Shown here: one piece after another, positions 235 to 23,401 of the stretch
Layout: each line of letters starts with the position of its first letter
Position numbering within the stretch: the first letter of the stretch is position 1
NCBI GenBank assembly: GCA_000175855.1
Contig: ACYB01000004.1
Location: forward strand, 111,801 to 143,800
Origin: Raphidiopsis brookii D9
GTDB lineage: Bacteria > Cyanobacteriota > Cyanobacteriia > Cyanobacteriales > Nostocaceae
DNA length: 32,000 bases
Direction of reading: 5' to 3'
Translations under genes and position numbers: made by a program
Notes under the pieces: model-generated
What the model was told of the DNA's origin: nothing
Database searches by the model: none
What the model saw: the letters and a program-made list of their open reading frames with translations, nothing else

Positions 235-236
235 CT

Positions 237-1019: not shown

Positions 1020-1447
1020 TCAAATGTGATAAAGTCGATATCAGCTCGGTCAGATTCCTTGGGGTCATGCTCTATGTCAGCAATATTGAGGACAAGATTG
1101 AGATTTTGACTCACCCCCTGAAAAGCCATCCAAATACCCGGGGGAATCGTCAGGCGACGATAATCTTGATCTTCGGGAGAAAGAATGAAAGATTCAACCC
1201 TTCCATAACTTGTTGATTCTGGACGATCATCATACAAAACAAACCGAATACACCCACAGGGAACAACCAGATTAAGGGTCATTTGGTTATGGCGTTTCCA
1301 AGGTTTAATTGTTCCATAGTGAATGGTTGAAAAATAAGCCTCACCAAATTTTACGTAACCTGGATCAGATGCTTTGATTCCATGCAAGACATCACCTGCA
1401 TCCGAAGGAATACGTCGAATAGGGGTTAGAATTACACCGTCTAACAT
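1001..1447 (-). CDS. small RmlC-like cupin sugar-nucleotide epimerase/isomerase (3,5-epimerase-like or WxcM/FdtA-like)
   Basis: The track ORF is 1001..1540. The ATG at 1447 (MLDGVILTPIRR...) overlaps the rfbG stop (ATGTTAG) and gives a 148-aa protein of typical cupin size. The sequence is beta-rich (GDVLHGIKAS, GEAYFSTIHYGTIKPWKRH). The assignment rests on general resemblance and context, not on a strict motif. Confidence 0.55.
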   Translation of the reverse strand: MLDGVILTPIRRIPSDAGDVLHGIKASDPGYVKFGEAYFSTIHYGTIKPWKRHNQMTLNLVVPCGCIRFVLYDDRPESTSYGRVESFILSPEDQDYRRLTIPPGIWMAFQGVSQNLNLVLNIADIEHDPKESDRADIDFITFDWSLKP

Positions 1448-2517: not shown

Positions 2518-2540
2518 ACAGGTTTAAAAGTAAATGGCAT

Positions 2541-3425: not shown

Positions 3426-3459
3426 AAATTATTTAGTAATTTGGCTATACTAGGCTATT

Positions 3460-5280: not shown

Positions 5281-5399
5281 ATTTCCATAAAGATATGGTA
5301 GCTACTTAGGCTTTAGGCGAGATTGGCCATTCCAAGAAACGAGATGAATGAGGGCATCGAAGATATTGATCTCCCGCTTACTAAAGACCAACACCGACC

Positions 5400-6308
5400 T
5401 CAGGAAACAATTGCAATTAGATAATCACACCAACCACTACGCTTTAAATCCTCAGCATAAGCCCTCTCAGTTTCTTGGGAAAATATATGTGAATACTTCC
5501 TAAAACCACCAGGCTTTCCAGTCATAAGCCAATGAATGTGATTAGACAAGTCATATCGCTGCCCAGGAAATATTTCAAATGGACGGTCCAGCCCAGCAAG
5601 AACGTATTTCAGCGATTCTGGTGTGAAATACCAATGATGTGCCCGCCACCAATAAAACTTCTCAAACTCCGGAACTTTGTAAAACGAAATAAGAGGGTCA
5701 TTGCCATTGGGAACCTCAAACATCATTTTACCGCCTGGCTTTAAAAACGGTAAAAGCGACTTTAAAAATGAAAGTGGATCAGTGACATGTTCCAAAACAT
5801 AATAGTGCAACAGAATATCAAAATAACCAGTATGATCTCTGTTCAGTGCATCCATACTAGCCACGGTTTTTACACCTTTACTATTGGCAAAGTCACGATA
5901 CTGATGACTTAACTCCACACCGATCACCTCACAACCACTATCTTGTAGTGGTTTCAACATGAACCCAGATGACGAACCAATTTCTAAAACTCTCGAACCT
6001 GCTGGACATAGTTTGTCAAGCCAGGGTTTGCGCAACGGCATTTCTCGGGATGACAACGACTTAAATTGACTTTCTGGATCGCTCCAACTTTCGTCTCCGG
6101 AACGCTTAGCCATCCATTTATCAAACTCATTTTCGTAGAAAGCCTTGTCGTCTTCTCTAGAAGTAACGGGATAAAGATAAATAGCATTACAATCGTTACA
6201 CTGCCAGAAAGCTTGCTCGGAAACACCACCATAAACATCAGTTGAGCGAATCCTTTGATGGGGCTTACTTGAGTTGCATAGTGGGCATACTTGAGGTTCT
6301 AACTTCAT
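5400..6308 (-). CDS. class I SAM-dependent methyltransferase with N-terminal four-Cys zinc ribbon
   Basis: 302 aa with CPLC ... CNDC near the N-terminus, motif I VLEIGSSSGFMLKPL, EVIGVELS and PGGKMMFEVPN. Confidence 0.75.
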   Translation of the reverse strand: MKLEPQVCPLCNSSKPHQRIRSTDVYGGVSEQAFWQCNDCNAIYLYPVTSREDDKAFYENEFDKWMAKRSGDESWSDPESQFKSLSSREMPLRKPWLDKLCPAGSRVLEIGSSSGFMLKPLQDSGCEVIGVELSHQYRDFANSKGVKTVASMDALNRDHTGYFDILLHYYVLEHVTDPLSFLKSLLPFLKPGGKMMFEVPNGNDPLISFYKVPEFEKFYWWRAHHWYFTPESLKYVLAGLDRPFEIFPGQRYDLSNHIHWLMTGKPGGFRKYSHIFSQETERAYAEDLKRSGWCDYLIAIVS

Positions 6309-6507
6309 AATTATCGTCCTAATTGGCTAAACATTCACATTTCAGCAGCAAAATAGCAACACCCACTGGGATCTTCGAAAAATACAAATCTTATTAGGAA
6401 TGAGAATTAGATCTAAATTGTTTGATCCAAATTGTTTTGGGATTCAGGATTCGAAATAAGGTAACTAACCAAGGCGAGCTATTGCCCTAACAATTTTACA
6501 TATCAAT

Positions 6508-7458
6508 TTAGAGATTTGGTAGCATCTCTGAAGGAAGTGTTCTAACCCAATCAGCCATGACTTTTAAACCCGATTTTAAATCGGTTCTGGGAACCCAGTC
6601 TAAATCACCAACCAAGCTCGAATTATCCCCATAAATGCCAAATTGATCCTTTGGCGTTCCATCCCCAAAGGTAATTGGATATTCATCGGCTTTTTTCCCA
6701 AAAGCGTCTAAAATATAATCGATTAACTCCCATACATACGTCTTTGTTCCAGTTGACACGTTGTATATCTTTCCAGATGCTCTATTATCTAACGACTTCA
6801 CAAAAGCATCTACGACATCATCGACATAAATAAAATCACGAAATCTATCTTTGGAGCCTTTGACATGGATGGGAACATTCTTTGCAACGTAACTCATAAA
6901 TATGCTTACCATGCCCTGCTTCATATTCTTCATGTCTTGAAGAGGACCGTACACATTGAACAAGCGAAGGCATGTAGTATGAATCCCAAATCCCTGATAA
7001 ATCTTACATAGATATTCAGATGCCACTTTACCAACCGAATAAGGGGATGGCGGTTTTATTTCGGAATCTTCACTCACGGGGAGATTCAAAGGATCCCCAT
7101 AGATATTCATTGTGCTAGCAAATATAAACCTTGGGACTCTCTTAGCTAACGCCCACTTGAGTAAAAAAATTGTTGACAGTGCATTGGCCTTGAGGTCATA
7201 TGTCGGATTTTCGAAAGACAACTCTTGACCAACATGTGATGCCAAGTGAAATATCGCATCAACTCCGTTATCCGGGAGAAGAGAAAATGAATCCTCAGTC
7301 GTCAAGTCCATCCAGATAAAGTGAGCTCCTCCAGGTATGTTTCGCTCATGACCGGATGAGAGATTGTCAACCACTATTACATCCCACCCGTCATCAATGA
7401 GCCGCACTACAAGATGGGATCCAATGAAACCGGCTCCCCCAGTAACTATTGCCTTCAT
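6508..7458 (-). CDS. NAD-dependent epimerase/dehydratase (extended SDR, UDP-hexose 4-epimerase-like)
   Basis: 316 aa with VTGGAGFIGSHL, ASTMNIYG and SPYSVGKVASE (YxxxK). An AAGGAGG Shine-Dalgarno sits just upstream, and the start overlaps the upstream stop as ATGA. Confidence 0.85.
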   Translation of the reverse strand: MKAIVTGGAGFIGSHLVVRLIDDGWDVIVVDNLSSGHERNIPGGAHFIWMDLTTEDSFSLLPDNGVDAIFHLASHVGQELSFENPTYDLKANALSTIFLLKWALAKRVPRFIFASTMNIYGDPLNLPVSEDSEIKPPSPYSVGKVASEYLCKIYQGFGIHTTCLRLFNVYGPLQDMKNMKQGMVSIFMSYVAKNVPIHVKGSKDRFRDFIYVDDVVDAFVKSLDNRASGKIYNVSTGTKTYVWELIDYILDAFGKKADEYPITFGDGTPKDQFGIYGDNSSLVGDLDWVPRTDLKSGLKVMADWVRTLPSEMLPNL

Positions 7459-8312
7459 TTTTCCTCCTTCTGTCGTAAGCGTGATTTAACTTCCCACACC
7501 CCGAATCTGGTTTCCAATTGTTGCACTTGCTCCATACCTAGTGAGCTTCGAACCTTTAGCTCATTATTAAAATATGCAATAGACACGTCATCTTGACAGA
7601 TTTTTTGATAATCTCCAGCAAGGGATTTTACCTTGCCCCATCTTTTTTTTAGGAAGTTCTCAGCTTCAATCGAATGTGATTGGCATACATTTCCCTCAAT
7701 AGAGTTGATTGCTTTAAGTCCAAGTTTTTTCCTAGTCAGGTTTATATATGCGGTGTCCGTATGGAGAAATGTATAGTATGCATCGTCAACCGCGACTACA
7801 CTACCATCTTTTAAAAAGGGATCGACCAGATTGAGCTCACCTTCCACATTTTCCCATACATGCTCACTGTCATGCATAGTAAAGTGTACAGTGTCTGTCC
7901 ACTCGGAAGTAATACCAATGCCTAAGTATGGAGATCGACTGTTGTAGCCAATAAGTTTCCAGACAGAATTAATATTGGCACTAAATAGAGTACAAATAGT
8001 TTCAACGCAGGCAGTACGAATTTCTGAACCTTTTTTCGAGTTAAAGTCCCATGTTAAAGCTAACCCATGGTGCTTGATTGCATAGAAAACTATCGCAATC
8101 GAGCTAGCACCAACACCTGTCTCAATCAAACATAGTTTTTCACCTGTTATGGTTGCACGATTACCCAAGTCATGAATTATGGTACAAATTGTAGCGAACT
8201 CAGAATCTGGAATTGAATTTATCCATCGCGGTAACAGCCGTTTTACAGAAATCAGATAATTAATCTCTTCATCTAAGTTTTTAGGACATGATCCTAGGAA
8301 AAAATCGTACAT
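7455..8312 (-). CDS. hypothetical protein, possibly a TylF/CmcI-like methyltransferase fold
   Basis: 285-aa ORF in operon context. LIETGVGASSIAIVFYA looks like a degenerate SAM motif I, and DGSVVAVDDAYY resembles the TylF-type region. The functional evidence is weak. Confidence 0.4.
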   Translation of the reverse strand: MYDFFLGSCPKNLDEEINYLISVKRLLPRWINSIPDSEFATICTIIHDLGNRATITGEKLCLIETGVGASSIAIVFYAIKHHGLALTWDFNSKKGSEIRTACVETICTLFSANINSVWKLIGYNSRSPYLGIGITSEWTDTVHFTMHDSEHVWENVEGELNLVDPFLKDGSVVAVDDAYYTFLHTDTAYINLTRKKLGLKAINSIEGNVCQSHSIEAENFLKKRWGKVKSLAGDYQKICQDDVSIAYFNNELKVRSSLGMEQVQQLETRFGVWEVKSRLRQKEEK

Positions 8313-8475
8313 AGTAGTGACCTACATGAATGGTTATTTTAAGGGTAGCAGCGATAAAAAACTGACCTTGTTCAACAATGGGATGATTTAACCAAATTTT
8401 CAACGACTTTTAAATGGTTTCGCATCTCACTTCATCTTGCAAATATGCAACGCTAAAAAACTAGCCAGTTTAAAC

Positions 8476-9444
8476 CTAAAAGATTTCGGTATAATTTCGA
8501 GCCGGCTTCGCTGAGTCGAGTCCAATTATTGCGGCACGTCCCATTGCTAAAACAGCCTCCCCGGTGCTTCCCCCAATGTGTCCAGTGGCAATCAAATTAG
8601 GTAAATTGAGAAGTTCCAAATCCAGTGGTGGCTCTTCATTAAATACGTCTAATGCGGCTCCCGCCAAGTAGCCATCTTTCAAAAGCTGCTTGAGACCAGA
8701 CTCGTCTACAATCCCACCACGAGCAAAGTTAATGAGACATGCTCCTTTTTTCATTAGTTTTAACCGCTCAAGACTAAACATCTTGCGAGTGGAGATATCC
8801 AGGGGGAGATGAATGGTTACCACATCTGCATCAGAAAGAAGGTCTTCTAACGATACTGGAACAATGTCTTTGGCTATATAGAACTCTGCATAGTTCTTGA
8901 TATCGTGTGCGAGAATACGACAACCAAACCCACTTAACAAAATGGCAACCTCTTTACCAATGTGACCGCAACCGACTATGCCAACTGTCTTTCCAGTTAG
9001 TTGACGACCTTGTAATTGCCGCCATTGACCTGCTCGTACTTCCGCATGACTTTCGGAAGTTCGATGCAATAAGGAAATCGCAGCGGCAATAACCATTTCC
9101 GCCACAGAGCGCCTGTTTACCCCACCTTTCCAACCTAATTGGACTCCGTGACGATCCATAGCTTCAAGATCAATCGTGTCTAGTCCGACTCCATACTTGC
9201 TGATAACTTTCAATTGAGGTAGCTGTGCTAAAAGATTTTCGTCAATTTTCTCAAGCGCAGTGATGGCTTTGTCGTGACCTTGTAGAAACTCTACAAGGTC
9301 ATTTCCTGCCAATACTTGGCCAGATTCGTTAAATGTTACTTGTGCGTAACTGGCAAGAAGTTCTTGACGTAGATCGAAATGACGCGAAAACGAACGGGAT
9401 GTAACGGCAACTCGGCTAGTTGTATTAAGTACTTTATTAGCCAT
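8476..9444 (-). CDS. D-isomer-specific 2-hydroxyacid dehydrogenase (PGDH/GHPR-like)
   Basis: 322 aa with NAD motif GKTVGIVGCGHIGKEVA, NFARGGIVDE and the catalytic His context ATGHIGGST. The start overlaps the upstream stop as ATGGCTAA. Confidence 0.85.
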   Translation of the reverse strand: MANKVLNTTSRVAVTSRSFSRHFDLRQELLASYAQVTFNESGQVLAGNDLVEFLQGHDKAITALEKIDENLLAQLPQLKVISKYGVGLDTIDLEAMDRHGVQLGWKGGVNRRSVAEMVIAAAISLLHRTSESHAEVRAGQWRQLQGRQLTGKTVGIVGCGHIGKEVAILLSGFGCRILAHDIKNYAEFYIAKDIVPVSLEDLLSDADVVTIHLPLDISTRKMFSLERLKLMKKGACLINFARGGIVDESGLKQLLKDGYLAGAALDVFNEEPPLDLELLNLPNLIATGHIGGSTGEAVLAMGRAAIIGLDSAKPARNYTEIF

Positions 9445-10528
9445 AGGGAAGCACGTCTAAAAAATAGTTATTACAGATAGTACAAAACTCCTCAGAATTA
9501 TCGATCAGTGTGCGTTTCGGCAGACCTGCAGCGTCAAGCAAAATCAAGCTTAGTTGAGTACCAATATTCTTTTTATCTTTGCTAAGGGCAGCAAAAAACC
9601 TATCTCGCGGAACCTCAACCGTATGAAATCCTTCAGAATTTTTCATTAATGTGGGATGCATTCGATTAAAGTGATCATCGGAAACATGACCCAATTGCAT
9701 GGCGACGTGATTTGCAAGATCCATCCCTATAGTAACCGCAATTCCATGTGGAACAAAAAAATCAGTTGCAGCTTCTATAGCATGTCCAAAACTGTGACCG
9801 TAATTCATAACGTTGCGCGGACCAGTGTCAAATTCATCTGATTCAATAAAGGTTTTCTTTATTTCAAGCGATCGATTTATAAAATACCGAAGTAGATTAT
9901 GATCAGTTTTTAACTGATCCTGGACTGCGGCAATTTCGTCATAATGACTGGGCCCTGCAATTGCGTGAACTTTCAATATTTCTCCAATTCCCGAGCGAAA
10001 GTCGACTTCCTTAAGAGTTTTCAAGATATCAGGATCGATGGTAATCTGATTCGGTGGGCAATAGGTCCCTAGAATGTTCTTGACAGGTCCCACATTAATT
10101 GAACTTTTTGAGCCTATACAGGAATCAGCCTGGGCCAGGAGAGTTGTAGGATAAAACTCCCACGCCACCCCCCGTAGCAAAGTAGTTGCTAAAAAAGCTG
10201 TGATGTCCTGCGTGATTCCGCCACCAATAGCAATTAGCCGATGATCACGACGCATGGACTGACTGACAAGAGCTTCTACATATCCGGTGAAGCGGTCAAG
10301 AGTCTTTGCTGACTCAGTCGCCTCAATAACCAGTGCCGAACTACCACTAATAATCGGATTAAGAACTTCATGATAAATTGCAACAACGTTAGCATCAATA
10401 ATAAAGTGTCGCTTTTCATGCGATTCCAAAGCTAGAAGATGTAGCGCATTTTGCGCATATCTTACTGTGTAAGAACCACGATGAGACTGAATAACGAGTG
10501 CTTCACACACGAACGAATCCTCCATCAA
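9437..10528 (-). CDS. 3-dehydroquinate-synthase-like enzyme (sugar-phosphate cyclase superfamily)
   Basis: 363 aa with IAIGGGITQDITAFLA, PTTLLAQADSCIGSKSSIN, GIGEILKVHA, NYGHSFGHAIEA and PHGIAVTIGM. These are collinear with AroB nucleotide, substrate and metal (E, H, H) motifs. The genomic context is a glycan locus, not the shikimate pathway. Confidence 0.8.
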   Translation of the reverse strand: MMEDSFVCEALVIQSHRGSYTVRYAQNALHLLALESHEKRHFIIDANVVAIYHEVLNPIISGSSALVIEATESAKTLDRFTGYVEALVSQSMRRDHRLIAIGGGITQDITAFLATTLLRGVAWEFYPTTLLAQADSCIGSKSSINVGPVKNILGTYCPPNQITIDPDILKTLKEVDFRSGIGEILKVHAIAGPSHYDEIAAVQDQLKTDHNLLRYFINRSLEIKKTFIESDEFDTGPRNVMNYGHSFGHAIEAATDFFVPHGIAVTIGMDLANHVAMQLGHVSDDHFNRMHPTLMKNSEGFHTVEVPRDRFFAALSKDKKNIGTQLSLILLDAAGLPKRTLIDNSEEFCTICNNYFLDVLPYG

Positions 10529-11215
10529 TGACTAGCCTCTGACCACTTATGTAAGTGTTTTCTGGACTACACAGCCAGCAAACAAGCGATGCAACTTCCT
10601 CCGCTTGTCCAAGACGACGGGCTGGGATGCGATCTGCTAGGTCGGCTATCCCCTGCGTACCAAGTATACTCCGAGTTAGTTCGGTATCGATGAATCCTGG
10701 TGCCACACAATTAGCCAAAATACCGAACTGAGCAACCTCTGCGGCTAGTGCCGCTGTCATACCGTCTATGGCAAATTTGCTGGTTGAATAGGAGGCCCGA
10801 TGTTCTCTGCTAACAATGCCAAAGATCGAACTTACATTTACTATACGACCCCACCTTTGCTCCAGCATGTATGGAATTACAGCCTGACAAAGCCGAAATG
10901 GTGCACGAACATTAACTAGATGTATCAAGTCAAAGTCTTTAGGTGCTATGTTAGCAAAAGGCGCAACTTTGTTAATACCAGCATTGTTGACAAGAATATC
11001 AAACTTCGATGAACGAATTTTATCAACAAAAGACTCAGTAGCGTGAGTATCAGCAAAGTCCACTGGATAGAAACTCATGCCATCCGGTCTCTTACCACTC
11101 CTGTTTGTTCCTGTTATGGTCACAGAAGCACCTTGAACAAGCAAGCGATCTGCTATTGCAGCACCAATTCCGCGGGTTCCCCCGTCACCAAAGCCTTTCG
11201 ACCACTAAGGTTCAT
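10503..11215 (-). pseudogene. classical SDR oxidoreductase interrupted by a 1-nt frameshift in a C5 (G5 on the coding strand) homopolymer
   Basis: The ATG at 11215 reads MNLSGRKALVTGEPAELVLQ and stops at 11153-11155. Shifting one base after the five-C run (plus strand 11179-11183) reads GTRGIGAAIADRLLVQGASVTITG and runs into track ORF 10503..11144, whose listed M is an internal TTG. One extra G would restore the SDR motif ALVTGGTRGIG. Downstream are LVNNAGI and YSTSK (YxxxK). Confidence 0.7.
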
Positions 11216-11224
11216 ATAAATTAA

Positions 11225-12295
11225 TTATTTATTAGCACTTTTGTCTGGCTGATCTGTAAAGTTCTCGGGGTGCATTATAAATCGTGCATTCCACTCCTTA
11301 TCGGCATGATAAATTTGCTCGACAAGTTCCATTGTTTTGTAAGCATCCCAGGAGGAACCACTTGCAACCGGTTTCTGCTCGACAATGCAATCAACAAAAG
11401 AAGATATTTCGTCTGGCCAGGAATGGTCAATATTAAATCTAGTCATCTGTTCCCTGGGATCCCCACCATCGTTCTCATCTGCATAAACTACGGTGATCGT
11501 TTCTGCACCATAACTACGACTATTTGTGAGGATGCCGGATAGCATGATTGCTCCTCGTCCCAAGGTGATATCAAGCTGAAATCGGTGACGCCACTGTGTG
11601 GCAGATGAGTGAAGCATGGCGACTATTCCGGAATAAGTTCGCATAAGTACGTAGGCATTATCTTCGACATCATGATGCCAGAAATCATTCTTGACGAAGC
11701 TGTAAACATCAGAGAACTCTCCAGCAAATAGTCGCATCATATCTACCATGTGGATGCCCTGGTCAAGAAGGATTCCACCCCCGGCTTTGTCTCTCTGAGT
11801 GCGCCATTCGTTGGTGTCAAAGCGGATAATTTTTGACTTGCCATAGACACCGCGTAAGTCCAGCACCTTCCCCAATTCTCCACTTTGAATAATACGCAGT
11901 GCCTCCTGAACTGAATCGTGGTAACGATGATTGAAACCATACATAAGCCGTTGATCAGGATGGCGTTTTTCACATTCAATTACAGCACGGATGTCATCGA
12001 CATTTCTTCCAGGCGGCTTCTCGCAAAAAACGTGTAGTCCCCGCTCAAGACCAGCTATTGTAACGGTAGGTGCCAGGTAATTTGGTAGACAGACAAATAG
12101 GATGTCTATGGATTCTTTAATCAGACTATCAAAATCAGGGTAAAAACGGACACCATCATCAAACTTGCCTGCTTCCGCAAAGCTCCTGTCACAAACAGCA
12201 ACAACCTCAAGTTTGGGATGAAGGTTGGAATACTTATGGCGAACTTTTCCAATGATCCCATAACCCGCAATACCGACCTTTAACTTACCGCCCAT
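11225..12295 (-). CDS. Gfo/Idh/MocA-family NAD(P)-dependent sugar oxidoreductase
   Basis: 356 aa with N-terminal Rossmann KVGIAGYGIIGK and the family EKP motif (VFCEKPPG). It lies 3 nt downstream of the preceding stop. Confidence 0.85.
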   Translation of the reverse strand: MGGKLKVGIAGYGIIGKVRHKYSNLHPKLEVVAVCDRSFAEAGKFDDGVRFYPDFDSLIKESIDILFVCLPNYLAPTVTIAGLERGLHVFCEKPPGRNVDDIRAVIECEKRHPDQRLMYGFNHRYHDSVQEALRIIQSGELGKVLDLRGVYGKSKIIRFDTNEWRTQRDKAGGGILLDQGIHMVDMMRLFAGEFSDVYSFVKNDFWHHDVEDNAYVLMRTYSGIVAMLHSSATQWRHRFQLDITLGRGAIMLSGILTNSRSYGAETITVVYADENDGGDPREQMTRFNIDHSWPDEISSFVDCIVEQKPVASGSSWDAYKTMELVEQIYHADKEWNARFIMHPENFTDQPDKSANK

Positions 12296-12298
12296 ATC

Positions 12299-13846
12299 TC
12301 AGCACCTTTTTTTCGAAAGTTCTTGATACCAGCCTACAGCCGATTCCAATCCGTCCCGTAATATAGCACAATCAACTCTATAGGAAACAAACCGAAACCC
12401 AGCATCAAGTAGCAGTTCTATATATTTGGGGTCACGCGCAACCGATCCAGCGGCTAAACCGCAGTCTTCAATCAGCTTTACATAGTCGCGCATGATTCGA
12501 AGGACCTTAGTATTTGTAAGGTCACCCGGTACGCCACAGGACTGAGACAGATCATAGACTCCAAGATAGATCATGTCCAAACCCGGGACTTTAGCAATTT
12601 CTGGAATATTGCTAACCCCCTCTACACCCTCAACAAGTATGCCAACAAGCATTTGTTCATTCGCATATTGGAGCTTTTGCGGCAAGTTTTGATCAGAATA
12701 GCCATGGTTTCTTGTAAAGGGTGACAGCCCCCGATCGCCGTCGGGGAAATACTTACATGACTTAACAATGCGCTCGGCTTGGCTCGCTGTTGACACTTGG
12801 GAGACAAGTATAGACTGGGCACCAATTTCCAAAGCATGAAGGATATGAGGCGCGTGATCTTCAGCAAGCCGAATAATCGGTTCAATGCCACCAGACTCCG
12901 CAGCATAAAGTTGGTTCTCAGCCGTCTCGAAACTGGTAGGTCCGTGTTCCAAATCAACAATCACGAAGTCGAGACCAGTTGTTGCTATTACGTTTAGCAC
13001 TGCTGGGGAAGACAGCATAGACCAGGTCCCAAAAACTCGCCCTCCGGATTTTAGGGTCTCTTTAACCTTATTAATTTTCTCACGTGTTTGCTTTCCTGAA
13101 TAGGATGGGTAAAAAGGGTCACTACGCATCGCATTCTCCGCTTCTAATCGATCCGGTTCAGTATCAACTGATACACTTTGGAAGCTAGAATGAATTGCCC
13201 GAACCTTGATGCCATGTTCGACGGCGCGAAGAAGCTCGATAGACTCGACTTTTTCGTAAGGCATCATTTCCATTGATTCAAAGTCAACCAGAAACTTCTT
13301 GCGGAAAGGCATAATCGCTACCTGTTTGAGACGAGGACCAATCTGGCTTCGTGTATTTGAAGGGACAGGACTGCGAGTCATGAATAGTATGTTATCAAAT
13401 TTGTCGACAAGTACCTTGACTTCGTTTGAATCGAGCCACTCGTTTTCATTTGCTTCTGCAACAAGGGTTCCAAGCTGGATATGGGGATCCTTTAATAGGG
13501 GTTCAACTGCGAGGTTGATCATGTCTGGATGAACAAGCGGTTCATCTCCTTGAACCACCACTACAATATCGTCGTCTGCAAGGTTGAGTTGTTTGCATGC
13601 CTCGGCAACACGGAGACCAGGTCTGGAAATATCTGGATGAGTCATCAGAGCCTGAGCTCCAAATTTTTCAACAGTGTCTTTAAGAATTTTGTCGCAGCAT
13701 GCGATGAAAATAGAATCTATGTTCTTGGCTAATAAACAACGCCTGTATACGTGCTCAATCATGGGCATACCTAGTATGTCGCAAAGAGGTTTGCCCGGAA
13801 ATCTAGATGCCCCCATTCGGGCTGGGATACCGACAACTACTTTCAT
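12299..13846 (-). CDS. bifunctional fusion: KdsB-like cytidylyltransferase (N) plus HpcH/HpaI class II pyruvate aldolase (C)
   Basis: 515 aa. Residues ~1-245 are collinear with KdsB along its whole length (GIPARMGASRFPGKPL, VVVVQGDEPLV, ESIELLRAVEHGIKV, SVDTEPD). Residues ~265-515 are collinear with HpaI/HpcH (VIVDLEHGP, conserved Arg in IIRL, metal ligands in ILVEG and LGVYDLS). Confidence 0.8.
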   Translation of the reverse strand: MKVVVGIPARMGASRFPGKPLCDILGMPMIEHVYRRCLLAKNIDSIFIACCDKILKDTVEKFGAQALMTHPDISRPGLRVAEACKQLNLADDDIVVVVQGDEPLVHPDMINLAVEPLLKDPHIQLGTLVAEANENEWLDSNEVKVLVDKFDNILFMTRSPVPSNTRSQIGPRLKQVAIMPFRKKFLVDFESMEMMPYEKVESIELLRAVEHGIKVRAIHSSFQSVSVDTEPDRLEAENAMRSDPFYPSYSGKQTREKINKVKETLKSGGRVFGTWSMLSSPAVLNVIATTGLDFVIVDLEHGPTSFETAENQLYAAESGGIEPIIRLAEDHAPHILHALEIGAQSILVSQVSTASQAERIVKSCKYFPDGDRGLSPFTRNHGYSDQNLPQKLQYANEQMLVGILVEGVEGVSNIPEIAKVPGLDMIYLGVYDLSQSCGVPGDLTNTKVLRIMRDYVKLIEDCGLAAGSVARDPKYIELLLDAGFRFVSYRVDCAILRDGLESAVGWYQELSKKRC

Positions 13847-13848
13847 CT

Positions 13849-14643
13849 TTAGAAACTCCTTCGAATCGGCAATGTCCGTACAAATCGATTGGTCAACTCT
13901 CCTAGCCCGGAAACGCGGGCTGTGTAAATATCGTCATCACCAAGAAAACGCATACCCACGGTATCAGGAGGATTGCCAGTCAGCACTAAGTCCCAAGGAT
14001 TAAGGGTCATCCAGGTCGACAACCAGGAGATAATACGCTGCCACTGCCAGAACTGATCACTTGAACGACCTCTGCGGATTACCTCACCGTTCTGTATTGC
14101 TTCAATCACACAATCGGATGCGTCAAATTCGGTGTCAATCCAGGGACCTACTGCGCAAAATTTATCTGCACACTTGGATCGTGCTAAGTGATGGTCACGG
14201 TGATCAACGTTTTCCACCGTAGTATCATTAGCAATAGTGAAGCCAAGAATGCCTTCGCGAGCTTCGCAGTCGGAAATGTTACGCAGCCTTTTGCCAATTA
14301 CAACTGCTAGTTCGGCTTCGCCCCACCAAGAAAGCCCAGGAAAAGGATTCTCTACTGTATCCCCTGGACCGCAAATGCACGAAGGTGGCTTGACAAATAC
14401 CAAGGGTTCGGACATGGTGGGTGAAAAATGAAGGATGCCAGGAAAGTTGATTGCGACACAAATAATCTTAGCAGGCTGGCACGGAGAGACCAGTCGCAAG
14501 TCCTCAATGCTACCTACCATTTTTCCAGCGTGGGTATTTCCAGATAGAATATCTCCCTCCAACTCAAATACATTACCGTCTTTGACTACACCATTGTGTA
14601 CGCCCCCTGGGGGGTTATGAGTAACGTAACGAACAATTTTCAT
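13849..14643 (-). CDS. fumarylacetoacetate hydrolase (FAH) family protein
   Basis: 264 aa with PLVFVKPPS, GEAELAVVIGK (E-x-E metal pair), IANDTT, AVGPW and LNPWDLVLTGNP. A TAGGAG Shine-Dalgarno sits upstream of the ATG. Confidence 0.8.
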   Translation of the reverse strand: MKIVRYVTHNPPGGVHNGVVKDGNVFELEGDILSGNTHAGKMVGSIEDLRLVSPCQPAKIICVAINFPGILHFSPTMSEPLVFVKPPSCICGPGDTVENPFPGLSWWGEAELAVVIGKRLRNISDCEAREGILGFTIANDTTVENVDHRDHHLARSKCADKFCAVGPWIDTEFDASDCVIEAIQNGEVIRRGRSSDQFWQWQRIISWLSTWMTLNPWDLVLTGNPPDTVGMRFLGDDDIYTARVSGLGELTNRFVRTLPIRRSF

Positions 14644-14691
14644 GTAAAACTCCTATCTATAAAGATTTAGATCAACCGGCAACCAAACGCC

Positions 14692-15297
14692 TCAAGCAAT
14701 TAACCTAGCCTTGGGAATAGGTTTAACCTCTAAATCTTTACCTAAGACCTCACATAACCACTGCATACAGATATGTCCCACAATCAACTGTAAGTCCTCG
14801 GCAATTTGCATATCATTCACCGGAAAGTGAATAGGAATTTGGGCCAAGTCCTTACACCTTCCCCCAGAAAATCCTAAAATAGCACAGGTCACCATACCTA
14901 AATTATTACCTACCTCCAATGCCTTAACTACATTAGGAGAATTACCACTGCCAGATAAAACAATTAGCACGTCACCTATTTCTGCTTTAACTCGTAGTTG
15001 CTGAGCATAAATTTGCTCATAGCCCAAGTCATTAGCCAAACAGGTCAGAATGGCCGAGTTAGCTGCTAATGCCTCTACACGAAGACCTAAACCAGCCTGC
15101 ATCCCTGCACCATAAATCAAGTCATTGGCTAAATGAACCGCATTACCTGCACTTCCTCCGTTACCACAAAGGTAAACGACTTTTCCTTGAAGCCAGGCAT
15201 TTCTTAATGCTTCTCCCAGATTCGGGATCAACTGCATTGCTTGTTGATCCAGTGCATACTTGAGGCTATCAGCATAACTTTGAATATAGTTGTACAT
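14692..15297 (-). CDS. SIS-domain sugar-phosphate isomerase, GmhA (sedoheptulose-7-P isomerase)-like
   Basis: 201 aa, collinear with GmhA-type SIS proteins: LCGNGGSAGNAVHLANDL, VLIVLSGSGNSPNV, AILGFSGG, IAEDLQLIVGH. It is the first gene of operon B. Confidence 0.8.
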   Translation of the reverse strand: MYNYIQSYADSLKYALDQQAMQLIPNLGEALRNAWLQGKVVYLCGNGGSAGNAVHLANDLIYGAGMQAGLGLRVEALAANSAILTCLANDLGYEQIYAQQLRVKAEIGDVLIVLSGSGNSPNVVKALEVGNNLGMVTCAILGFSGGRCKDLAQIPIHFPVNDMQIAEDLQLIVGHICMQWLCEVLGKDLEVKPIPKARLIA

Positions 15298-15532
15298 CTA
15301 TATTGGCAATCCTTATAACAGTCTAATAGTCCTAATCAATCCTAATAGTCTTTTTGAACTTTGTGCCTTATCGTCGATTATGGAATCGGAAAAAGGCGAG
15401 CGCCGTTTTCCACCATTTACTTGTTAATAGAATAACATTGGTTACTTGATTATGTGGGACTAGAATTTTATGTGAGTCAAATTTGTTTTCTAAGCTTGTT
15501 AACACTGTATATACAGGAATAATCTTTGCGCA

Positions 15533-15611
15533 GCTCAACTACTGGGTAGCGAGTTGGGGGGAAGGAACCGAGATCCACTAGACCATCAAAGCTCAGCTTC
15601 TCAATATAAAA
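15533..15611. repeat. conserved upstream element, module A, copy 1
   Basis: gctcaactactgggtagcgagttggggggaaggaaccgagatccactagaccatcaaagctcagcttctcaatataaaa matches copy 2 (26944-27022) at 72 of 79 positions, counted by hand. It lies 236 nt upstream of the SIS gene start. Confidence 0.85.
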
Positions 15612-15686
15612 TGAGTTATTATTTTATTATTCAGTTTTTTGATTTGCCAAACCCAATGTTATTTTATGGATTATTACATCTTCTAA

Positions 15687-15768
15687 CATGAAACCAGGTG
15701 AGATGCAACACTTAATTTACAATAAAATTTCTAGTCCTTTTTTTTACAAGTTTATACAAGCATGGATG
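15687..15768. repeat. conserved upstream element, module B, copy 1
   Basis: catgaaacc...gatgcaacacttaatt...tttttttac..tttata is shared with 29107-29189 and, in shorter form, with 27100-27140. The atgcaacac core lies 91 nt after the end of module A. Confidence 0.7.
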
Positions 15769-15802
15769 TAACATCCAGGTCATCGCCTTTAGGTAGTGAG
15801 GT

Positions 15803-15842
15803 AAAAAGGCGATCTCGCGAGTGCGAGTACTTCGCGATCGCC
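15803..15842 (-). terminator. rho-independent terminator closing operon A
   Basis: The minus strand reads GGCGATCGCGAAGTACTCGCACTCGCGAGATCGCC followed by TTTTTA. The outer stem is GGCGATC/GATCGCC, with further inner pairs. It starts 61 nt after the stop of the 400-aa gene at 15903. Confidence 0.65.
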
Positions 15843-15902
15843 TGTCGAAAAACCTTTTGCCTCAAATAAAGGTTCTAATTATTGTGTCAGATGCTTGATG
15901 GT

Positions 15903-17105
15903 CTACTTTAAAGACCTTGCATAATCCGCAAATATATCCCAGCAAGTTTTTTCAGGAGCTAGGGGACTTTTAATATAAGAATCAAGGTATAGTTTATATG
16001 CTTGTTGATTTACTTCCAATTCAGCTTGCCAGTCAATATTCCCAGGGTCGTCGAGATTAATTTGCCCTTTGCCAAGACTATGAGCTATGGCATTATATTG
16101 TTGCTTTAAGGGGTATTGAGCGTAATTTTCAATACAGTTCAGAGTAATAAATAGTATTGGCTTACGGTAAATAACTGCAAAGCTAACGGATGTACTTCCA
16201 TGAGTGATCACACATTTTGAATTTTTCACAAGATCTTGTGTCGCACCGCGTACAACCCTCCTGCCATCAAAATAGTCGGGGTGGCTTTCATAGTGAGATC
16301 TGGGATGGGCTGCTATTACAACCCTACTGTCAAAGACATTCTCCAATTTTTCAAAAAACTCGACTAATTTCGGGTAATATTGTTGGTGATCACATGGTGC
16401 AGTAACCCCCATATGCAAATAGTCTGAATGGAAAGGAAGATATTCATCTAGAAAGACAATATTACCTTTGTATTGACTGTCAATATTGGAGTCTCCCTGT
16501 TCATTTTGAAGATACAAGTCATAGTCAAATGTACAACCGTGAATCACATTAGTGATTTTGCCAATTGGCTTTCTTCCTCCTGACTTCTCCCCTGCTAGAA
16601 TTAGGAAATTCATTGGTTTAATACCCAATAGTTTTGCGGGAAGCTTACTAAAAATACCTCTAGTTAAAGACGAGGGATCTCTAAAAAGTTTTAACACAAT
16701 CCTTGATATCAGATAGTCAAGTTTTCTTTTCGTGTGTTCCAAACCAAATGCAGAGGGTAAAGTCCCCGATGCAATAGAACCGTACACTAGATTCCTGGAT
16801 GAGATGGCCTTATAAATTTCCCAAGTTCTAATTTGGTAAGACACAAAAGTAACTATCAATGTTTTTTGGTAGTTTAGCTTTTCTATAGACTCTATCAGAG
16901 AATTTTTGCTGTAGAAAAGTCTCAACCCATCAAAAGTAAAACTATCGGGAGGAATGTACTTCTCTGAAACAATTGGATTTAGAAAGGGGGTAAGATCCCA
17001 AAACTCAACATCGAAACCACTTTTAATTAAAGTCTCACTTCCAAACCTTTTGTAATCCCTTTTATTAAATGGAGATTCTATTAAAAAAATAATGTTTTTG
17101 ATCAT
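15903..17105 (-). CDS. uncharacterised 400-aa protein, candidate nonulosonic-acid/glycosyl transferase
   Basis: Last gene of operon A, directly after the CMP-transferase gene. It has no named-family motif. The C-terminal half (RVVIAAHPRSHY ... CVITHGSTSVSFAVIYRKPILFI) has the x-HP plus G-S/T pattern of GT-B-type nucleotide-sugar binding domains. Confidence 0.45.
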   Translation of the reverse strand: MIKNIIFLIESPFNKRDYKRFGSETLIKSGFDVEFWDLTPFLNPIVSEKYIPPDSFTFDGLRLFYSKNSLIESIEKLNYQKTLIVTFVSYQIRTWEIYKAISSRNLVYGSIASGTLPSAFGLEHTKRKLDYLISRIVLKLFRDPSSLTRGIFSKLPAKLLGIKPMNFLILAGEKSGGRKPIGKITNVIHGCTFDYDLYLQNEQGDSNIDSQYKGNIVFLDEYLPFHSDYLHMGVTAPCDHQQYYPKLVEFFEKLENVFDSRVVIAAHPRSHYESHPDYFDGRRVVRGATQDLVKNSKCVITHGSTSVSFAVIYRKPILFITLNCIENYAQYPLKQQYNAIAHSLGKGQINLDDPGNIDWQAELEVNQQAYKLYLDSYIKSPLAPEKTCWDIFADYARSLK

Positions 17106-17156
17106 AACAAAGTTATAAAATACAAAGTTATAAAATCTCGGAAATAATCGGCGATT

Positions 17157-17870
17157 TCATGCTTTCCGGAGCAAAAATTCTGCCCAATATAAGTCCGGTA
17201 ACTCATCAATTTCCAGTCCCTGTTCCGCATCTATCTCATACATGAATGTTGAACTGTTCACAAAACTCCTATTTTCTTCTATGAAATCTAAGGATGCAAT
17301 ATAGATTGACCCATTAATATAGTAAAATGACTCTTTATAGTCCTGTCTTCTATTTGAAGATCGGGTGTAATCTGTGAGGTAAGACCATTTTTGTCCAATA
17401 CCTCTTATACAATCGTATGGATGTTCTCTCATCTTATGAACACTTGTGAGACTTTGTAGTTGATTCGATAAGTAAAAATTGACTGCCAAATCTATATCTT
17501 CTGCTGTCCTTAAAGGACTTGTAGGTTGAAGGAGTACTATAGTTTTAGGAATGAAACTATCATGCAGTTCAATCCATTGTAATAAGTCAATTACAGATTC
17601 TATAACTTCAGACTCATCCGTAGCCAGTTTTGCTGGGCGTTTATAGGAAGAGTATAAACCTAGAGATCTACCTAAGCTAATAATGTCTTCGTCATCAGAT
17701 GAAAGCATAACTTTACTAATTGATTTAGCTGCCTTAGCCGCTTCTATTGTGTAAGCTAGAAGCGGTTTACCATTAAGCTCAATTAGGTTCTTTTTAGGAA
17801 TTCCCTTTGACCCTCCTCTAGCAGGTATAATAGCTAATACAGGTTGTGCATTCAACGACATATCTTTCAT
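17157..17870 (-). CDS. legF: acylneuraminate (nonulosonate) cytidylyltransferase, NeuA/LegF-like
   Basis: 237 aa with AIIPARGGSKGIPKKNL and VLLQPTSPLR, the CMP-NeuAc synthetase signatures. The start overlaps the upstream stop as ATGA. Confidence 0.85.
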   Translation of the reverse strand: MKDMSLNAQPVLAIIPARGGSKGIPKKNLIELNGKPLLAYTIEAAKAAKSISKVMLSSDDEDIISLGRSLGLYSSYKRPAKLATDESEVIESVIDLLQWIELHDSFIPKTIVLLQPTSPLRTAEDIDLAVNFYLSNQLQSLTSVHKMREHPYDCIRGIGQKWSYLTDYTRSSNRRQDYKESFYYINGSIYIASLDFIEENRSFVNSSTFMYEIDAEQGLEIDELPDLYWAEFLLRKA

Positions 17871-18514
17871 ATCCTTTCAAGTTTCATTAATAGGACTTTT
17901 TCGTGGGAATTATGGCTAGTGAGTATATTCGAAACAACTCTAAAGGGTAAATCAGTTTGCAGTTCATCAAGAAAGGTTTCAAAACCTTGAAACCCATCAA
18001 TTACTTGTTTCCCAATTTTCTGATCTTTAGGAAAATACTGCTTAATTGCTAATTTTCCACCGGGATTTAATGACCGCAAAACTTTTTGGAATACACCATT
18101 AATATCATCAAGAATATACCAAATTACCTCTGAAAGCAGAATTAGGTCAAAGCATGATTCTATTTCATCGTACATAATATTTTTGTTTTGAAATTTAATG
18201 GAAGGGTATTTCTGTGTAGCTTTTTGAATTGCTGTCAAAGACACATCGATACCTATCATCTCGATTAAATTCCCCCCCATACTGAGAATTGAAAATACCT
18301 GGTATGTAGCATCACCTGTCCCACAGCCAATGTCTAAAACTTTCTTAGGACTATTAAAGCTTATTTTATTAAAGTTTTCTATAAGCATTAGTCGGAAAAT
18401 TTGATTGTCAAGCGAGTTACAGTGAGCAGCACAACCCCAGGGATCATCAATGTCTTGATACATCTCTTCGAACTGATTATTGATCCAGTATTCCATTGGA
18501 TTTTGATACTTCAT
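17867..18514 (-). CDS. class I SAM-dependent methyltransferase (NodS-like)
   Basis: The track ORF starts at a GTG at 18529. The ATG at 18514 (MKYQNPMEYW) has a GGAGAG Shine-Dalgarno 7 nt upstream. Motif I is VLDIGCGTGDATYQ, followed by IGIDVS and PGGKLAIKQY. Confidence 0.8.
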   Translation of the reverse strand: MKYQNPMEYWINNQFEEMYQDIDDPWGCAAHCNSLDNQIFRLMLIENFNKISFNSPKKVLDIGCGTGDATYQVFSILSMGGNLIEMIGIDVSLTAIQKATQKYPSIKFQNKNIMYDEIESCFDLILLSEVIWYILDDINGVFQKVLRSLNPGGKLAIKQYFPKDQKIGKQVIDGFQGFETFLDELQTDLPFRVVSNILTSHNSHEKVLLMKLERI

Positions 18515-18578
18515 TGCATAGCTCTCCACATTGTACTAGTTGTTAATGGAAAATGTTACGGGAATCTAATTGCTATTT

Positions 18579-19706: not shown

Positions 19707-19751
19707 AATTCTTTTCGACTTGCTTTACAAAAATTCTTTCTTTCGGTAGAA

Positions 19752-20510: not shown

Positions 20511-20586
20511 AGCGATGTGAAGTTTTGAGGTAATGTGATTAAAGTCTGCAATCTTGCACTAGTTGTACATATTAAGTAATAGGATC

Positions 20587-23354: not shown

Positions 23355-23401
23355 GTAGTTATTGAATTGGAAAGTATTTTCCCCAAAATATACTATTTCC
23401 G

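Follow-up and report, generated by a model that had tools for sequence, protein, structure and literature searches.

Results

The window, a stretch of 32,000 nucleotides from Raphidiopsis brookii D9, carries seven minus-strand genes between positions 8476 and 15297. In order of transcription these encode a GmhA-like SIS-domain sugar-phosphate isomerase (201 aa, 14692–15297), an FAH-family protein of HpcE/HpaG type (264 aa, 13849–14643), a KdsB::HpcH fusion (515 aa, 12299–13846), a Gfo/Idh/MocA NAD(P) oxidoreductase (356 aa, 11225–12295), a frameshifted FabG-like SDR (10503–11215), a DHQS-like enzyme of family TIGR04425 (9437–10528) and a D-isomer-specific 2-hydroxyacid dehydrogenase (322 aa, 8476–9444). 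Successive genes are spaced by 48, 2, 3 and 9 nt, followed by overlaps of 26 nt (the SDR 3' end with the DHQS-like start) and 8 nt. The original prediction gave the same coordinates, strand and spacing, and all seven of its domain calls hold in profile searches (Pfam and NCBIfam).

As also predicted, the block has an upstream region of its own. This 605-nt intergenic stretch (15298–15902, minus strand) contains a hairpin (15842–15808) followed by TTTTT (15807–15803), 61 nt past the preceding gene. The hairpin was read by eye, since it is not listed by a consensus terminator scan of the window; together with the T-run it is likely the terminator of the adjoining Leg operon. A promoter-like site (TTGGCA-18-TAAAAT, 10/12 match) follows at 15650–15621. 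The Leg operon itself (15903–26767) encodes LegB, LegC, NeuC, NeuB, NeuD, a PtmE-like gene and a cytidylyltransferase, and contains neither an SIS nor an SDR gene.

The predicted SDR gene is present and has an SDR domain, but it is not intact: a -1 frameshift in a run of five G residues (11183–11179) had been missed. Translation from ATG 11215 gives MNLSGRKALVTGEPAELVLQ followed by a stop, and the longest ORF, from TTG 11144, is only 213 aa. Addition of one G to the run restores a 237-aa protein with a TGGTRGIG motif; orthologues are 237–239 aa long. Dropping one G from a homopolymer is typical of sequencing errors, and the frameshift reflects either such an error or an inactivation of the gene, real or phase-variable. 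The pathway may therefore be inactive in Raphidiopsis brookii D9.

Residues 1–242 of the fusion (13121–13846, minus strand) form a KdsB-like cytidylyltransferase domain (CTP_transf_3, 3.7e-43), which scores 219.9 against NF003952 (cutoff 193). Against the kdsB equivalog TIGR00466 (cutoff 155.2) it scores 136.7, and a second KdsB domain 149.9; both lie only slightly below the cutoff for true KdsB, which suggests that the substrate resembles Kdo and is not exotic. Among solved structures, the capsule-specific CMP-Kdo synthetase KpsU of E. coli (1gq9) is the closest to the domain of the fusion. Motifs GASRFPGKPL, QGDEP and SVDTEPD correspond to KdsB residues K19, D95 and D219 (PMC3149649), and the catalytic residues of the domain are intact. 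Residues 258–507 (12326–13075, minus strand) form an HpcH/HpaI class II pyruvate-aldolase domain (HpcH_HpaI, 2.5e-29). Alignment to YfaU (2vws) and HpaI bears out this prediction, with the catalytic His (DLEH), Arg (PIIRL), Glu (ILVEG) and Asp (GVYDLS) all conserved. The linker SGKQTRE stands where five relatives have a stop codon and an intergenic spacer. KdsB and HpcH are separate genes in 28/28 related loci having both, adjacent in most, and no second fusion occurs among the best matches listed when 1.84 billion representatives were searched exhaustively. By these comparisons the fusion is a one-off of the window.

The DHQS-like protein contains DHQS N- and C-terminal domains and scores 484.5 against TIGR04425 (cutoff 400), compared with 252 against aroB, below its cutoff of 305. 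NCBIfam names TIGR04425 'AroB-related putative sugar phosphate phospholyase (cyclizing)', a hypothetical function. The ORF comprises 363 aa here, and 357 aa in annotation elsewhere. Every DHQS motif is kept, including those of the metal, phosphate and carboxylate sites, where we take the carboxylate and phosphate ligands to be those of A. nidulans DHQS.

Among the remaining products, the SIS protein (SIS_2, 1.8e-22) has phosphoheptose isomerases as its best solved relatives, but its 105 bits with the gmhA equivalog fall far short of the cutoff of 209. The FAH protein (FAA_hydrolase, 2.6e-39) is closest among solved structures to HpcE/HpaG isomerase/decarboxylases. For the Gfo protein, which shares 55–66% identity with its cassette orthologues, inositol 2-dehydrogenase is the best curated family, well under cutoff, and the solved relatives are inositol dehydrogenases and glucose-fructose oxidoreductase. 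The 2-hydroxyacid dehydrogenase (2-Hacid_dh_C, 2.3e-53) is nearest to the curated PGDH and glyoxylate reductase families, both far under cutoff; its solved relatives are type-III PGDH and GRHPR.

Of 185,579 species genomes, 428, spread over many phyla, carry a cassette marked by TIGR04425. Co-occurrence was scored in the 44 loci with full context around the DHQS-like gene. An SDR was present in 44/44 (100%), abutting or overlapping the DHQS-like start in most, and a 2-hydroxyacid dehydrogenase, usually the next gene after the DHQS-like one, in 91%; the order SDR, DHQS-like enzyme, dehydrogenase is kept and tightly packed across loci. Gfo/Idh/MocA oxidoreductases and KdsB- or NeuA-type cytidylyltransferases (CTP_transf_3) each occurred in 91%, the SIS isomerase in 52%, the HpcH aldolase in 36% and the FAH protein in 5%, all FAH occurrences being in window-like variants that adjoin KdsB/HpcH. 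Loci without KdsB have a second, divergent NeuA-like cytidylyltransferase adjoining the module, which ties CMP activation to the DHQS-like module itself. Many aldolase-free loci have an extra second Gfo and a HisC-like aminotransferase. Unbiased clustering of the neighbour genes revealed neither a recurrent phosphatase nor a recurrent PEP-dependent synthase.

The gene-neighbourhood census called for by the original prediction thus shows the genes travelling together in dozens of unrelated genomes, so their grouping is not chance. Judged by gene content and order, the block is one instance of an unstudied cassette widespread among bacteria, anchored by the DHQS-like gene, with SIS as an accessory and FAH as a rare one. 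The block had been described as built around the fusion. The low frequencies of HpcH and FAH, and the fusion's status as a singleton, place the constant core elsewhere: it is made up of the SDR, DHQS-like enzyme, 2-hydroxyacid dehydrogenase, Gfo and cytidylyltransferase.

Nor is the unit limited to seven genes. Co-directional minus-strand genes downstream encode a Methyltransf_24 protein (7455–8312), an NAD epimerase/dehydratase (6508–7458), a methyltransferase (5400–6308), a 606-aa putative HP-motif glycosyltransferase (3460–5280), a second methyltransferase (2541–3425), an NDP-hexose 4,6-dehydratase-like protein (1441–2517), an RmlC-like protein (1001–1540) and a nucleotidyltransferase (237–1019), as assigned by Pfam. 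In the family of the 606-aa protein H473-P474 is invariant; the KpsC-like profile matches it weakly (E about 0.3), and 4/8 members are annotated as DUF6716 'putative glycosyltransferase'. Gene order over 237–8312 is the same on the contig of the closest relative, and the genes recur in three loci (L003, L021 and L023). Glycosyltransferases, Wzy, an ABC exporter, PMT_2 and NDP-sugar genes surround the cassettes.

The Leg operon appears to have another origin. HIP1 occurs in 11 copies from 15834 upward, the one at 15834–15841 lying inside the hairpin, and in none across 1–15833; GC content also differs between the block and the Leg operon. These differences point to different histories and suggest that the block arrived separately. 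A route running in parallel with the neighbouring NeuB pathway had been proposed, but NeuB lies within 10 kb of the DHQS-like gene at only 8/44 loci (18%), and the juxtaposition is an accident of location. A Tn5-type transposase and gene fragments are found near the block.

Discussion

From the domains identified, the preserved catalytic motifs, and the synteny and co-occurrence of the genes, we infer candidate substrates, an order of steps and a product. We give about even chances to the reading that a surface-glycan cluster acquired by horizontal transfer has these seven genes as its upstream part, and that together they specify the synthesis of an acidic, ulosonic-type sugar in CMP-activated form. 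Its conserved engine would be the TIGR04425 DHQS-like enzyme with its coupled SDR, the 2-hydroxyacid dehydrogenase, the Gfo/Idh/MocA oxidoreductase and the KdsB/NeuA-type cytidylyltransferase. The starting compound would be a sugar phosphate with a 2-keto-acid head, resembling DAHP or Kdo-8-P. In the window, the HpcH aldolase could form it by joining pyruvate to an aldose phosphate supplied or interconverted by SIS. HpcH is missing from 64% of loci and so cannot be the general committed step; in this aldolase-free majority the compound might be drawn from housekeeping metabolism or arise when Gfo/2-hydroxyacid dehydrogenase oxidises a heptose phosphate.

The DHQS-like enzyme would then carry out an NAD+-dependent oxidation and expel the terminal phosphate by beta-elimination, a role assigned to it because the cassette encodes no phosphatase. 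Reduction of the reactive keto/enol product by the coupled SDR would yield an omega-deoxy acid, or a carbocycle after ring closure. Cyclisation would destroy the keto-acid head activated by KdsB-type enzymes, so that either none takes place, or a carbocyclic tertiary alcohol is accepted, or the steps follow another order. Gfo and the 2-hydroxyacid dehydrogenase would set oxidation state and stereochemistry, and methyltransferases in the window, or aminotransferases at other loci, may add further tailoring. The role given here to the 2-hydroxyacid dehydrogenase is not convincing. The KdsB domain would finally make the CMP derivative, and the downstream HP-motif transferase would attach the sugar to a glycan.

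An unlikely alternative is that the DHQS-like enzyme forms a dehydroquinate-like cyclitol carboxylate, tailored by the SDR and Gfo (and elsewhere an aminotransferase), whose tertiary alpha-hydroxy acid is cytidylylated by the KdsB-like enzyme to a CMP-'carba-ulosonic acid'. The complete DHQS motifs, the cyclising activity of known relatives, the term '(cyclizing)' chosen by NCBI curators and the inositol 2-dehydrogenase match of Gfo all favour ring formation; the second Gfo and HisC-like aminotransferase of aldolase-free loci follow aminocyclitol-pathway logic, and quinate C1 mimics the Kdo anomeric centre. However, a saturated carbocycle is not transferable by normal glycosyl-transfer chemistry, which sits poorly with a glycan-assembly context, the 2-hydroxyacid dehydrogenase would have no obvious substrate, the KdsB domains look near ordinary KdsB, and we know of no CMP-carbasugar in nature. 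We also think it unlikely that two independent modules are present, with KdsB, HpcH and SIS boosting supply of CMP-Kdo or a close analogue while a separate building block or substituent, not linked to CMP, comes from the SDR, DHQS-like enzyme, 2-hydroxyacid dehydrogenase and Gfo. Cytidylyltransferases accompany the DHQS-like gene too regularly for this, with a dedicated NeuA-like enzyme where KdsB is absent, and the KdsB domains fall under the equivalog cutoff. KdsD and KpsF have a CBS domain, whereas the GmhA-like SIS of the window has none. Such a division would nevertheless fit the capsule-specific KpsU as best solved relative, the weak signal of KpsC, a beta-Kdo transferase, in the 606-aa family and the position of HpcH, usually adjoining KdsB and not the DHQS-like gene; KpsU and KpsF boost CMP-Kdo supply in capsule loci.

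The frameshifted SDR and a read-through fusion could mark a non-functional, recently imported island, and the singleton status of the fusion, the nearby transposase and gene fragments and the lack of HIP1 sites agree with this. We consider it very unlikely, as none of the other six ORFs is truncated and their catalytic motifs are intact, the missing G is of the kind expected from sequencing, and the two domains of the fusion are complete and joined in frame by a short linker. Least probable is the original fallback that SIS and SDR are PtmF/PtmA equivalents feeding GlcN-6-P to the legionaminic-acid pathway. It would account for the absence of both genes from the Leg operon, and an extra SDR and SIS do stand beside PtmE at loci L058 and L065. 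It fails for the SDR, which accompanies the DHQS-like gene at every locus, NeuB being nearby at few, and is weak for SIS, which occurs in cassettes without any Leg genes (L010, L024 and L049, for example); HIP1 and GC content again separate the two operons.

A CMP-activated acidic sugar, the output originally predicted, is probably the most sensible reading, given a cytidylyltransferase at 91% of the 44 loci; such a sugar would probably be a new one, destined for the cell surface. No publication on the cassette was found in a full-text literature search, and its composition appears, as first suggested, to match no characterised pathway. The characterised enzymes of the DHQS family are, to our knowledge, all cyclases. 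The DHQS substrate DAHP is, as the prediction pointed out, a 3-deoxy-2-ulosonate phosphate, and the DHQS-like protein retains the motifs that bind such a compound in DHQS. In comparison with solved structures it matches DHQS (139 bits) better than the glucose-6-P cyclase DOIS (95) or the sedoheptulose-7-P cyclase EEVS ValA (92).

Organization of the seven-gene block

Seven co-directional ORFs on the minus strand were found within 8476–15297, with intergenic spacings of +48, +2, +3 and +9 nt followed by overlaps of 26 and 8 nt. Pfam and NCBIfam searches confirmed the predicted domains of all seven proteins. These are a GmhA-like SIS protein, an FAH-family protein, a 515-aa fusion of a KdsB-type cytidylyltransferase (aa 1–242) with an HpcH/HpaI aldolase (aa 258–507), a Gfo/Idh/MocA oxidoreductase (Gfo), a FabG-like SDR, a DHQS-like protein and a D-2-hydroxyacid dehydrogenase (2-HADH). 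The original prediction was correct on these ORFs and domains but overlooked a defect in the SDR gene, whose reading frame is broken by a -1 frameshift within a G5 run (11183..11179). Addition of one G to the run yields a 237-aa SDR with the TGGTRGIG cofactor motif. The missing G may be a sequencing error, or the gene may be truly inactivated, perhaps by phase variation.

In the 605-nt region upstream of the block, a hairpin with a trailing T-run lies 61 nt past the preceding gene, and there is also a promoter-like site. No terminator-like site between 8313 and 8475 was listed by the scan, and co-directional syntenic genes run on past the block, down to 237. The closest related metagenomic contig continues past its own cassette with genes for a 283-aa protein, an epimerase, a methyltransferase, a 638-aa protein, a dehydratase, a 145-aa protein and a nucleotidyltransferase. 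This order matches that of the window from 8312 down to 237, indicating that the functional unit is larger than the seven genes first delimited, real as these are. The last stretch of this synteny includes an NDP-6-deoxyhexose module (237..2517; nucleotidyltransferase, RmlC-like and 4,6-dehydratase-like genes), which also lies beside the cassette in roughly one in four related loci.

A conserved five-enzyme core

Relatives of the cassette were detected in 428 genomes by a pattern scan using one genome per species. The 80 best loci came from Alpha-, Gamma- and Zetaproteobacteria, Desulfobacterota, Acidobacteriota, Verrucomicrobiota, Actinomycetota, Nitrospirota, Nitrospinota, Planctomycetota, Elusimicrobiota and a CPR lineage, and were searched with the window proteins by tblastn and iterated HMMs. 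Co-occurrence was scored in the 44 loci whose flanks extend 8 kb or more in each direction, a gene being counted if it lay within 8 kb of the DHQS-like gene. SDR was present in every locus (44/44), and 2-HADH, Gfo and a CTP_transf_3 cytidylyltransferase were each present in 91%. Shares were lower for SIS (52%), HpcH (36%), NeuB (18%, 8/44) and FAH (5%). The gene order SDR, DHQS-like, HADH is conserved, and the SDR match abuts or overlaps the start of the DHQS-like gene in most loci. Loci that lack KdsB have a second, divergent NeuA-like cytidylyltransferase beside the module, in addition to a LegF-like one. These shares, together with the NeuA-like stand-in, define a constant core of five enzymes (SDR, DHQS-like, HADH, Gfo and cytidylyltransferase), with the aldolase, SIS and FAH as accessories. 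In these 44 loci the core genes travel together, and HpcH and FAH accompany them in only a minority.

KdsA, KdsC and an SIS+CBS arabinose-5-P isomerase are absent from the seven genes, and none recurs in the 44 related loci. Nor does a phosphatase or a PEP-dependent (KdsA- or NeuB-like) synthase recur in these 44, including those devoid of the aldolase. No publication on the cassette was found in full-text searches of a collection that covers a minority of subscription papers. Within that scope, the result agrees with the original statement that the block belongs to no described pathway.

The DHQS-like enzyme

The DHQS-like protein scored 484.5 bits against NCBIfam TIGR04425, above the curated whole-protein cutoff of 400. 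This model, of the type 'hypothetical equivalog', is titled 'AroB-related putative sugar phosphate phospholyase (cyclizing)', and NCBI names orthologues of the protein identically. The score against the aroB equivalog TIGR01357 (252.1 bits) was below the cutoff of 305. Homologues number in the thousands at 50–77% identity. The protein matches PF01761 and PF24621, not PF00465, and comparison with solved relatives placed it closer to DHQS than to the glucose-6-P or sedoheptulose-7-P cyclases.

Across 18 family members, the motifs DSCIGSK..N, KN, GEILK and K..DE..G.R...N.GH..GH and residue H261 are invariant. So are all three residues of the D318-K319-K320 motif, and K317 is at least 90% conserved. 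The conserved motifs align to the DHQS structures 6lk2 and 3okf. We take the aligned positions to be the DHQS Zn ligands, together with the Lys/Asn/Asn/His/Lys and Lys/Arg positions that bind the phosphate and carboxylate of DAHP.

The KdsB::HpcH fusion

A word-indexed search of 5.8 billion clusters gave no other full-length match to the fusion protein, which matches a Raphidiopsis brookii D9 protein at 100% identity and is the sole member of its cluster. Exhaustive HMMER searching of 1.84 billion representatives returned single-domain matches only, among the matches listed. Two-stretch matches of 513–527 aa were considered as further fusions and ruled out, being tandem HpcH-HpcH proteins. Such tandem HpcH/HpaI proteins of ~520 aa (P0263, P0309 and P0320) have no relation to the KdsB fusion. 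Of the related loci, 28 encode both KdsB and HpcH, and every one encodes them as separate genes. The two genes are neighbours in most of the 28, in either order, and lie on opposite strands in two. Five window-like loci have a stop codon and 10–30 nt exactly where the window protein has the linker SGKQTRE. Judged from these loci, two neighbouring genes became fused recently and in one lineage. The fusion is a sign that KdsB and HpcH work together, but not the organising principle of the family. The emphasis originally placed on a block built around the fusion was therefore misplaced, the fusion being singular and HpcH occurring in just over a third of the 44 loci.

Both halves of the fusion look active from their motifs. 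The KdsB domain passed the subfamily model NF003952 (219.9 bits; cutoff 193) and failed the kdsB equivalog TIGR00466 (136.7 bits; cutoff 155.2). Its motifs GASRFPGKPL, QGDEP and SVDTEPD correspond, in a mapping at motif level only, to the catalytic Lys and the two Mg-A aspartates defined for KdsB (PMC3149649). The HpcH_HpaI domain scored 102.6 bits (Pfam gathering cutoff 25). Alignment of the aldolase half to YfaU/HpaI showed retention of the catalytic His and Arg and of the metal-binding carboxylates Glu and Asp. The domain fell far under every cutoff of the equivalog models HpaI, RhmA and GarL.

Cassette variants and glycan setting

Window-like loci (L003, L015, L021, L023, L069 and the closest metagenomic contig) carry FAH, KdsB, HpcH, Gfo, SIS, SDR, DHQS-like and HADH genes, with 55–74% identity to the window proteins. 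Most alphaproteobacterial loci instead read (HpcH, 26–30% identity), KdsB (~37%), Gfo, methyltransferase, SDR, DHQS-like, HADH. HpcH and a pair formed by a second Gfo and a HisC-like aminotransferase are almost mutually exclusive (Fisher p = 4e-4), with HpcH only in 15 loci, the second Gfo in 17, both in 1 and neither in 11. A Zn-ribbon SAM methyltransferase is almost confined to HpcH loci (12/13).

In Magnetospirillum moscoviense BB-1 (locus L050, 213..17649), the genes flanking the cassette encode an ABC exporter, three methyltransferases and two PMT_2 GT-C glycosyltransferases. The same locus additionally encodes an APH-like kinase and a HisC/CobD-like aminotransferase, and this company hints at a lipid-linked or periplasmic attachment step. 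Other related loci contain GT2 enzymes, Wzy, Polysacc_synt and NDP-sugar genes. The setting of the cassette is glycan assembly.

Downstream of the block, the window encodes a 606-aa protein (3460..5280) without a Pfam match, whose family often follows HADH in related loci. The family has an invariant His-Pro motif and weak KpsC-like and DUF6716 'putative glycosyltransferase' signals. A profile search of solved structures gave no more than a weak match to KpsC (E ~0.3), and a single-sequence AlphaFold model was too low in confidence for use (pLDDT 34.6). The protein is a weak candidate for the transferase.

Acquisition history

The window contains 11 copies of the cyanobacterial HIP1 octamer GCGATCGC, compared with a chance expectation of 0.07. 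All 11 sites lie at 15834..29864, in the Leg (legionaminic-acid) operon and beyond, and none in 1..15833. GC content is 0.45 over most of the block (10–15 kb), versus 0.34–0.44 in the Leg operon. Within 27620..31676, a Tn5-type transposase gene (30309..31676) is preceded by apparent gene fragments, namely an FAD-oxidoreductase N-terminus (28246..28881) and a PIG-L-like fragment (29337..29879). From the HIP1 sites, GC content, transposase and fragments, the block and all the genes downstream of it appear to have been imported more recently than the Leg operon, and the HIP1 and GC differences point to separate acquisition histories. No tRNA that could serve as an integration site is present in the window.

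The original prediction linked the block to its Leg neighbour. That emphasis was also misplaced, since NeuB lies near only 18% of related loci and the two regions differ in HIP1 and GC content. A fallback, in which SIS and SDR act as PtmF/PtmA equivalents supplying GlcN-6-P to the Leg pathway, fared no better: SDR accompanies the DHQS-like gene in 44/44 loci with NeuB near 8/44, and SIS occurs in Leg-free cassettes. The Leg operon itself has extra genes (15903..20510) encoding a PhyH-like dioxygenase (19752..20510; weak match), a second DegT-type aminotransferase (18579..19706), a methyltransferase (17867..18529) and a 400-aa orphan without a family match (15903..17105). These suggest a modified Leg derivative and a transferase.

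Proposed chemistry and product

We propose that the substrate of the core would be a 2-ulosonate omega-phosphate. The DHQS-like enzyme would remove the phosphate by transient oxidation and beta-elimination, and the coupled SDR would capture the reactive product. Gfo and 2-HADH would adjust the redox state, and the cytidylyltransferase would activate the result. For the window, the aldolase would be the obvious supplier of this phosphate, acting on pyruvate and an aldose phosphate, with SIS as the isomerase. Elsewhere, housekeeping DAHP or Kdo-8-P could be the supply. An alternative might be a path that starts at sedoheptulose-7-P and runs through SIS, Gfo (oxidation at C1) and 2-HADH (oxidation at C2). 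The chemistry first put forward for the block was a reasonable partial guess.

The product could be a non-cyclised omega-deoxy ulosonic acid. A Kdo-8-P-like substrate would need closure of a seven-membered ring, making cyclisation unlikely, and the near-KdsB scores of the cytidylyltransferase fit a non-cyclised acid. Cyclisation is the default of the DHQS enzyme family, and on that ground a CMP-activated carbocyclic ulosonic-acid mimic, a dehydroquinate- or quinate-like 'carba-sugar' acid, was weighed as the other outcome. The inositol-dehydrogenase-like Gfo and the aminotransferase variants would fit a dehydroquinate-like carbocycle. However, a carbocycle makes CMP activation and transfer chemically odd, and we consider this outcome unlikely. 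To our knowledge, a CMP-activated carba-sugar acid is of a kind not known in nature; if real, hundreds of bacterial species would be producing such a nucleotide-activated building block or transferase inhibitor.

Significance

The cassette is real, conserved and without a description that we could find, and it is probably a nucleotide-sugar biosynthetic cassette. We know of no CMP-activated sugars other than Kdo and the nonulosonic acids (sialic, legionaminic, pseudaminic and relatives), all made via PEP-dependent synthases. The combination of KdsB/NeuA-type activation with the proposed DHQS-like phosphate elimination, joined in a third of loci by a pyruvate aldolase, predicts a further class of acidic surface sugar, with the cassette carried by at least 428 species from many phyla. 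Once the product is identified, five widespread enzyme subfamilies of 'hypothetical function' would gain assigned roles, and bacterial glycan chemistry would gain a building block. For the cyanobacterium R. brookii, the cassette marks what looks like a recently imported surface-glycan island.

Knowing the product would also help to interpret the unassigned CMP-linked species that untargeted nucleotide-sugar surveys now report, among them the SugarBase preprint (bioRxiv 10.64898/2026.04.20.719630). In Magnetospirillum gryphiswaldense, that survey reported unassigned CMP-linked species including C10 alpha-keto acids, as well as low-mass CMP species unreactive towards DMB (bioRxiv 10.64898/2026.04.20.719630). 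DMB-negative CMP species are what a carbocyclic product would be expected to look like. Carriers of the cassette include M. moscoviense, Paramagnetospirillum caucaseum, Magnetospirillum sp. LM-5 and Ca. Terasakiella, and no M. gryphiswaldense protein is among the named matches. The CMP species of M. gryphiswaldense are only a lead in relation to the cassette.

Comparison with known systems

The CMP-Kdo pathway (KdsD, KdsA, KdsC and KdsB; capsule paralogues KpsF/KpsU) resembles the block in having an SIS-type sugar-phosphate isomerase, a KdsB-family cytidylyltransferase and, as proposed here, a C3-adding condensation that would give a 3-deoxy-2-ulosonate. KpsU is the best solved match of the KdsB domain. 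However, the block has a pyruvate-dependent class II aldolase (HpcH) in place of PEP-dependent KdsA, a GmhA-like isomerase without CBS domains, no KdsC phosphatase, four extra redox/lyase enzymes and a cytidylyltransferase under the KdsB equivalog cutoff. A canonical Kdo pathway was rejected, the outline being alike and the defining features (KdsA, KdsC and the SIS+CBS isomerase) missing.

The Leg/Pse/Neu nonulosonic-acid pathways share the proposed end point, a CMP-activated alpha-keto-acid sugar for surface glycans, and some cassette variants have a NeuA-like enzyme and lie next to NeuB genes. Those pathways combine a NeuB-type synthase with a NeuA-type synthetase, whereas the block lacks NeuB and the NDP-HexNAc dehydratase, aminotransferase or acetyltransferase logic. 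This assignment was likewise rejected, with NeuB missing from the block and nearby in few loci. The best solved relatives of FAH and the aldolase belong to homoprotocatechuate and 2-keto-3-deoxy sugar-acid catabolism (HpcE/HpaG, HpcH/HpaI, YfaU/RhmA and LRA5/LRA6). In contrast to those routes, the block lacks a dioxygenase, hydratase and semialdehyde dehydrogenase, and the neighbouring glycan genes and the cytidylyltransferase fusion give it a biosynthetic context. A homoprotocatechuate catabolic set was dismissed, as every equivalog cutoff was missed widely and the catabolic partner enzymes are missing.

In Shewanella Kdo8N biosynthesis (KdnB oxidase, KdnA aminotransferase and KdsB), an enzyme of the DHQS/Fe-ADH superfamily likewise modifies the sugar, at the tail of an octulosonic acid, ahead of CMP activation, and an aminotransferase is present in many aldolase-free cassettes. 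Within the DHQ-FeADH superfamily, KdnB is a member of the Fe-ADH family (FeADH3, cd08184), and its substrate is dephosphorylated Kdo (PMC5125639). Identity with KdnB was ruled out, since the protein here is of the DHQS family (PF01761/PF24621) with the full phosphate-binding motif set. With AroB and the other sugar-phosphate cyclases (DOIS, EEVS and DDGS), the DHQS-like protein shares the same Pfam domains and keeps the DHQS metal, phosphate and carboxylate motifs. Unlike theirs, its gene is found in glycan clusters beside a cytidylyltransferase, rather than in aromatic amino-acid or secondary-metabolite contexts.
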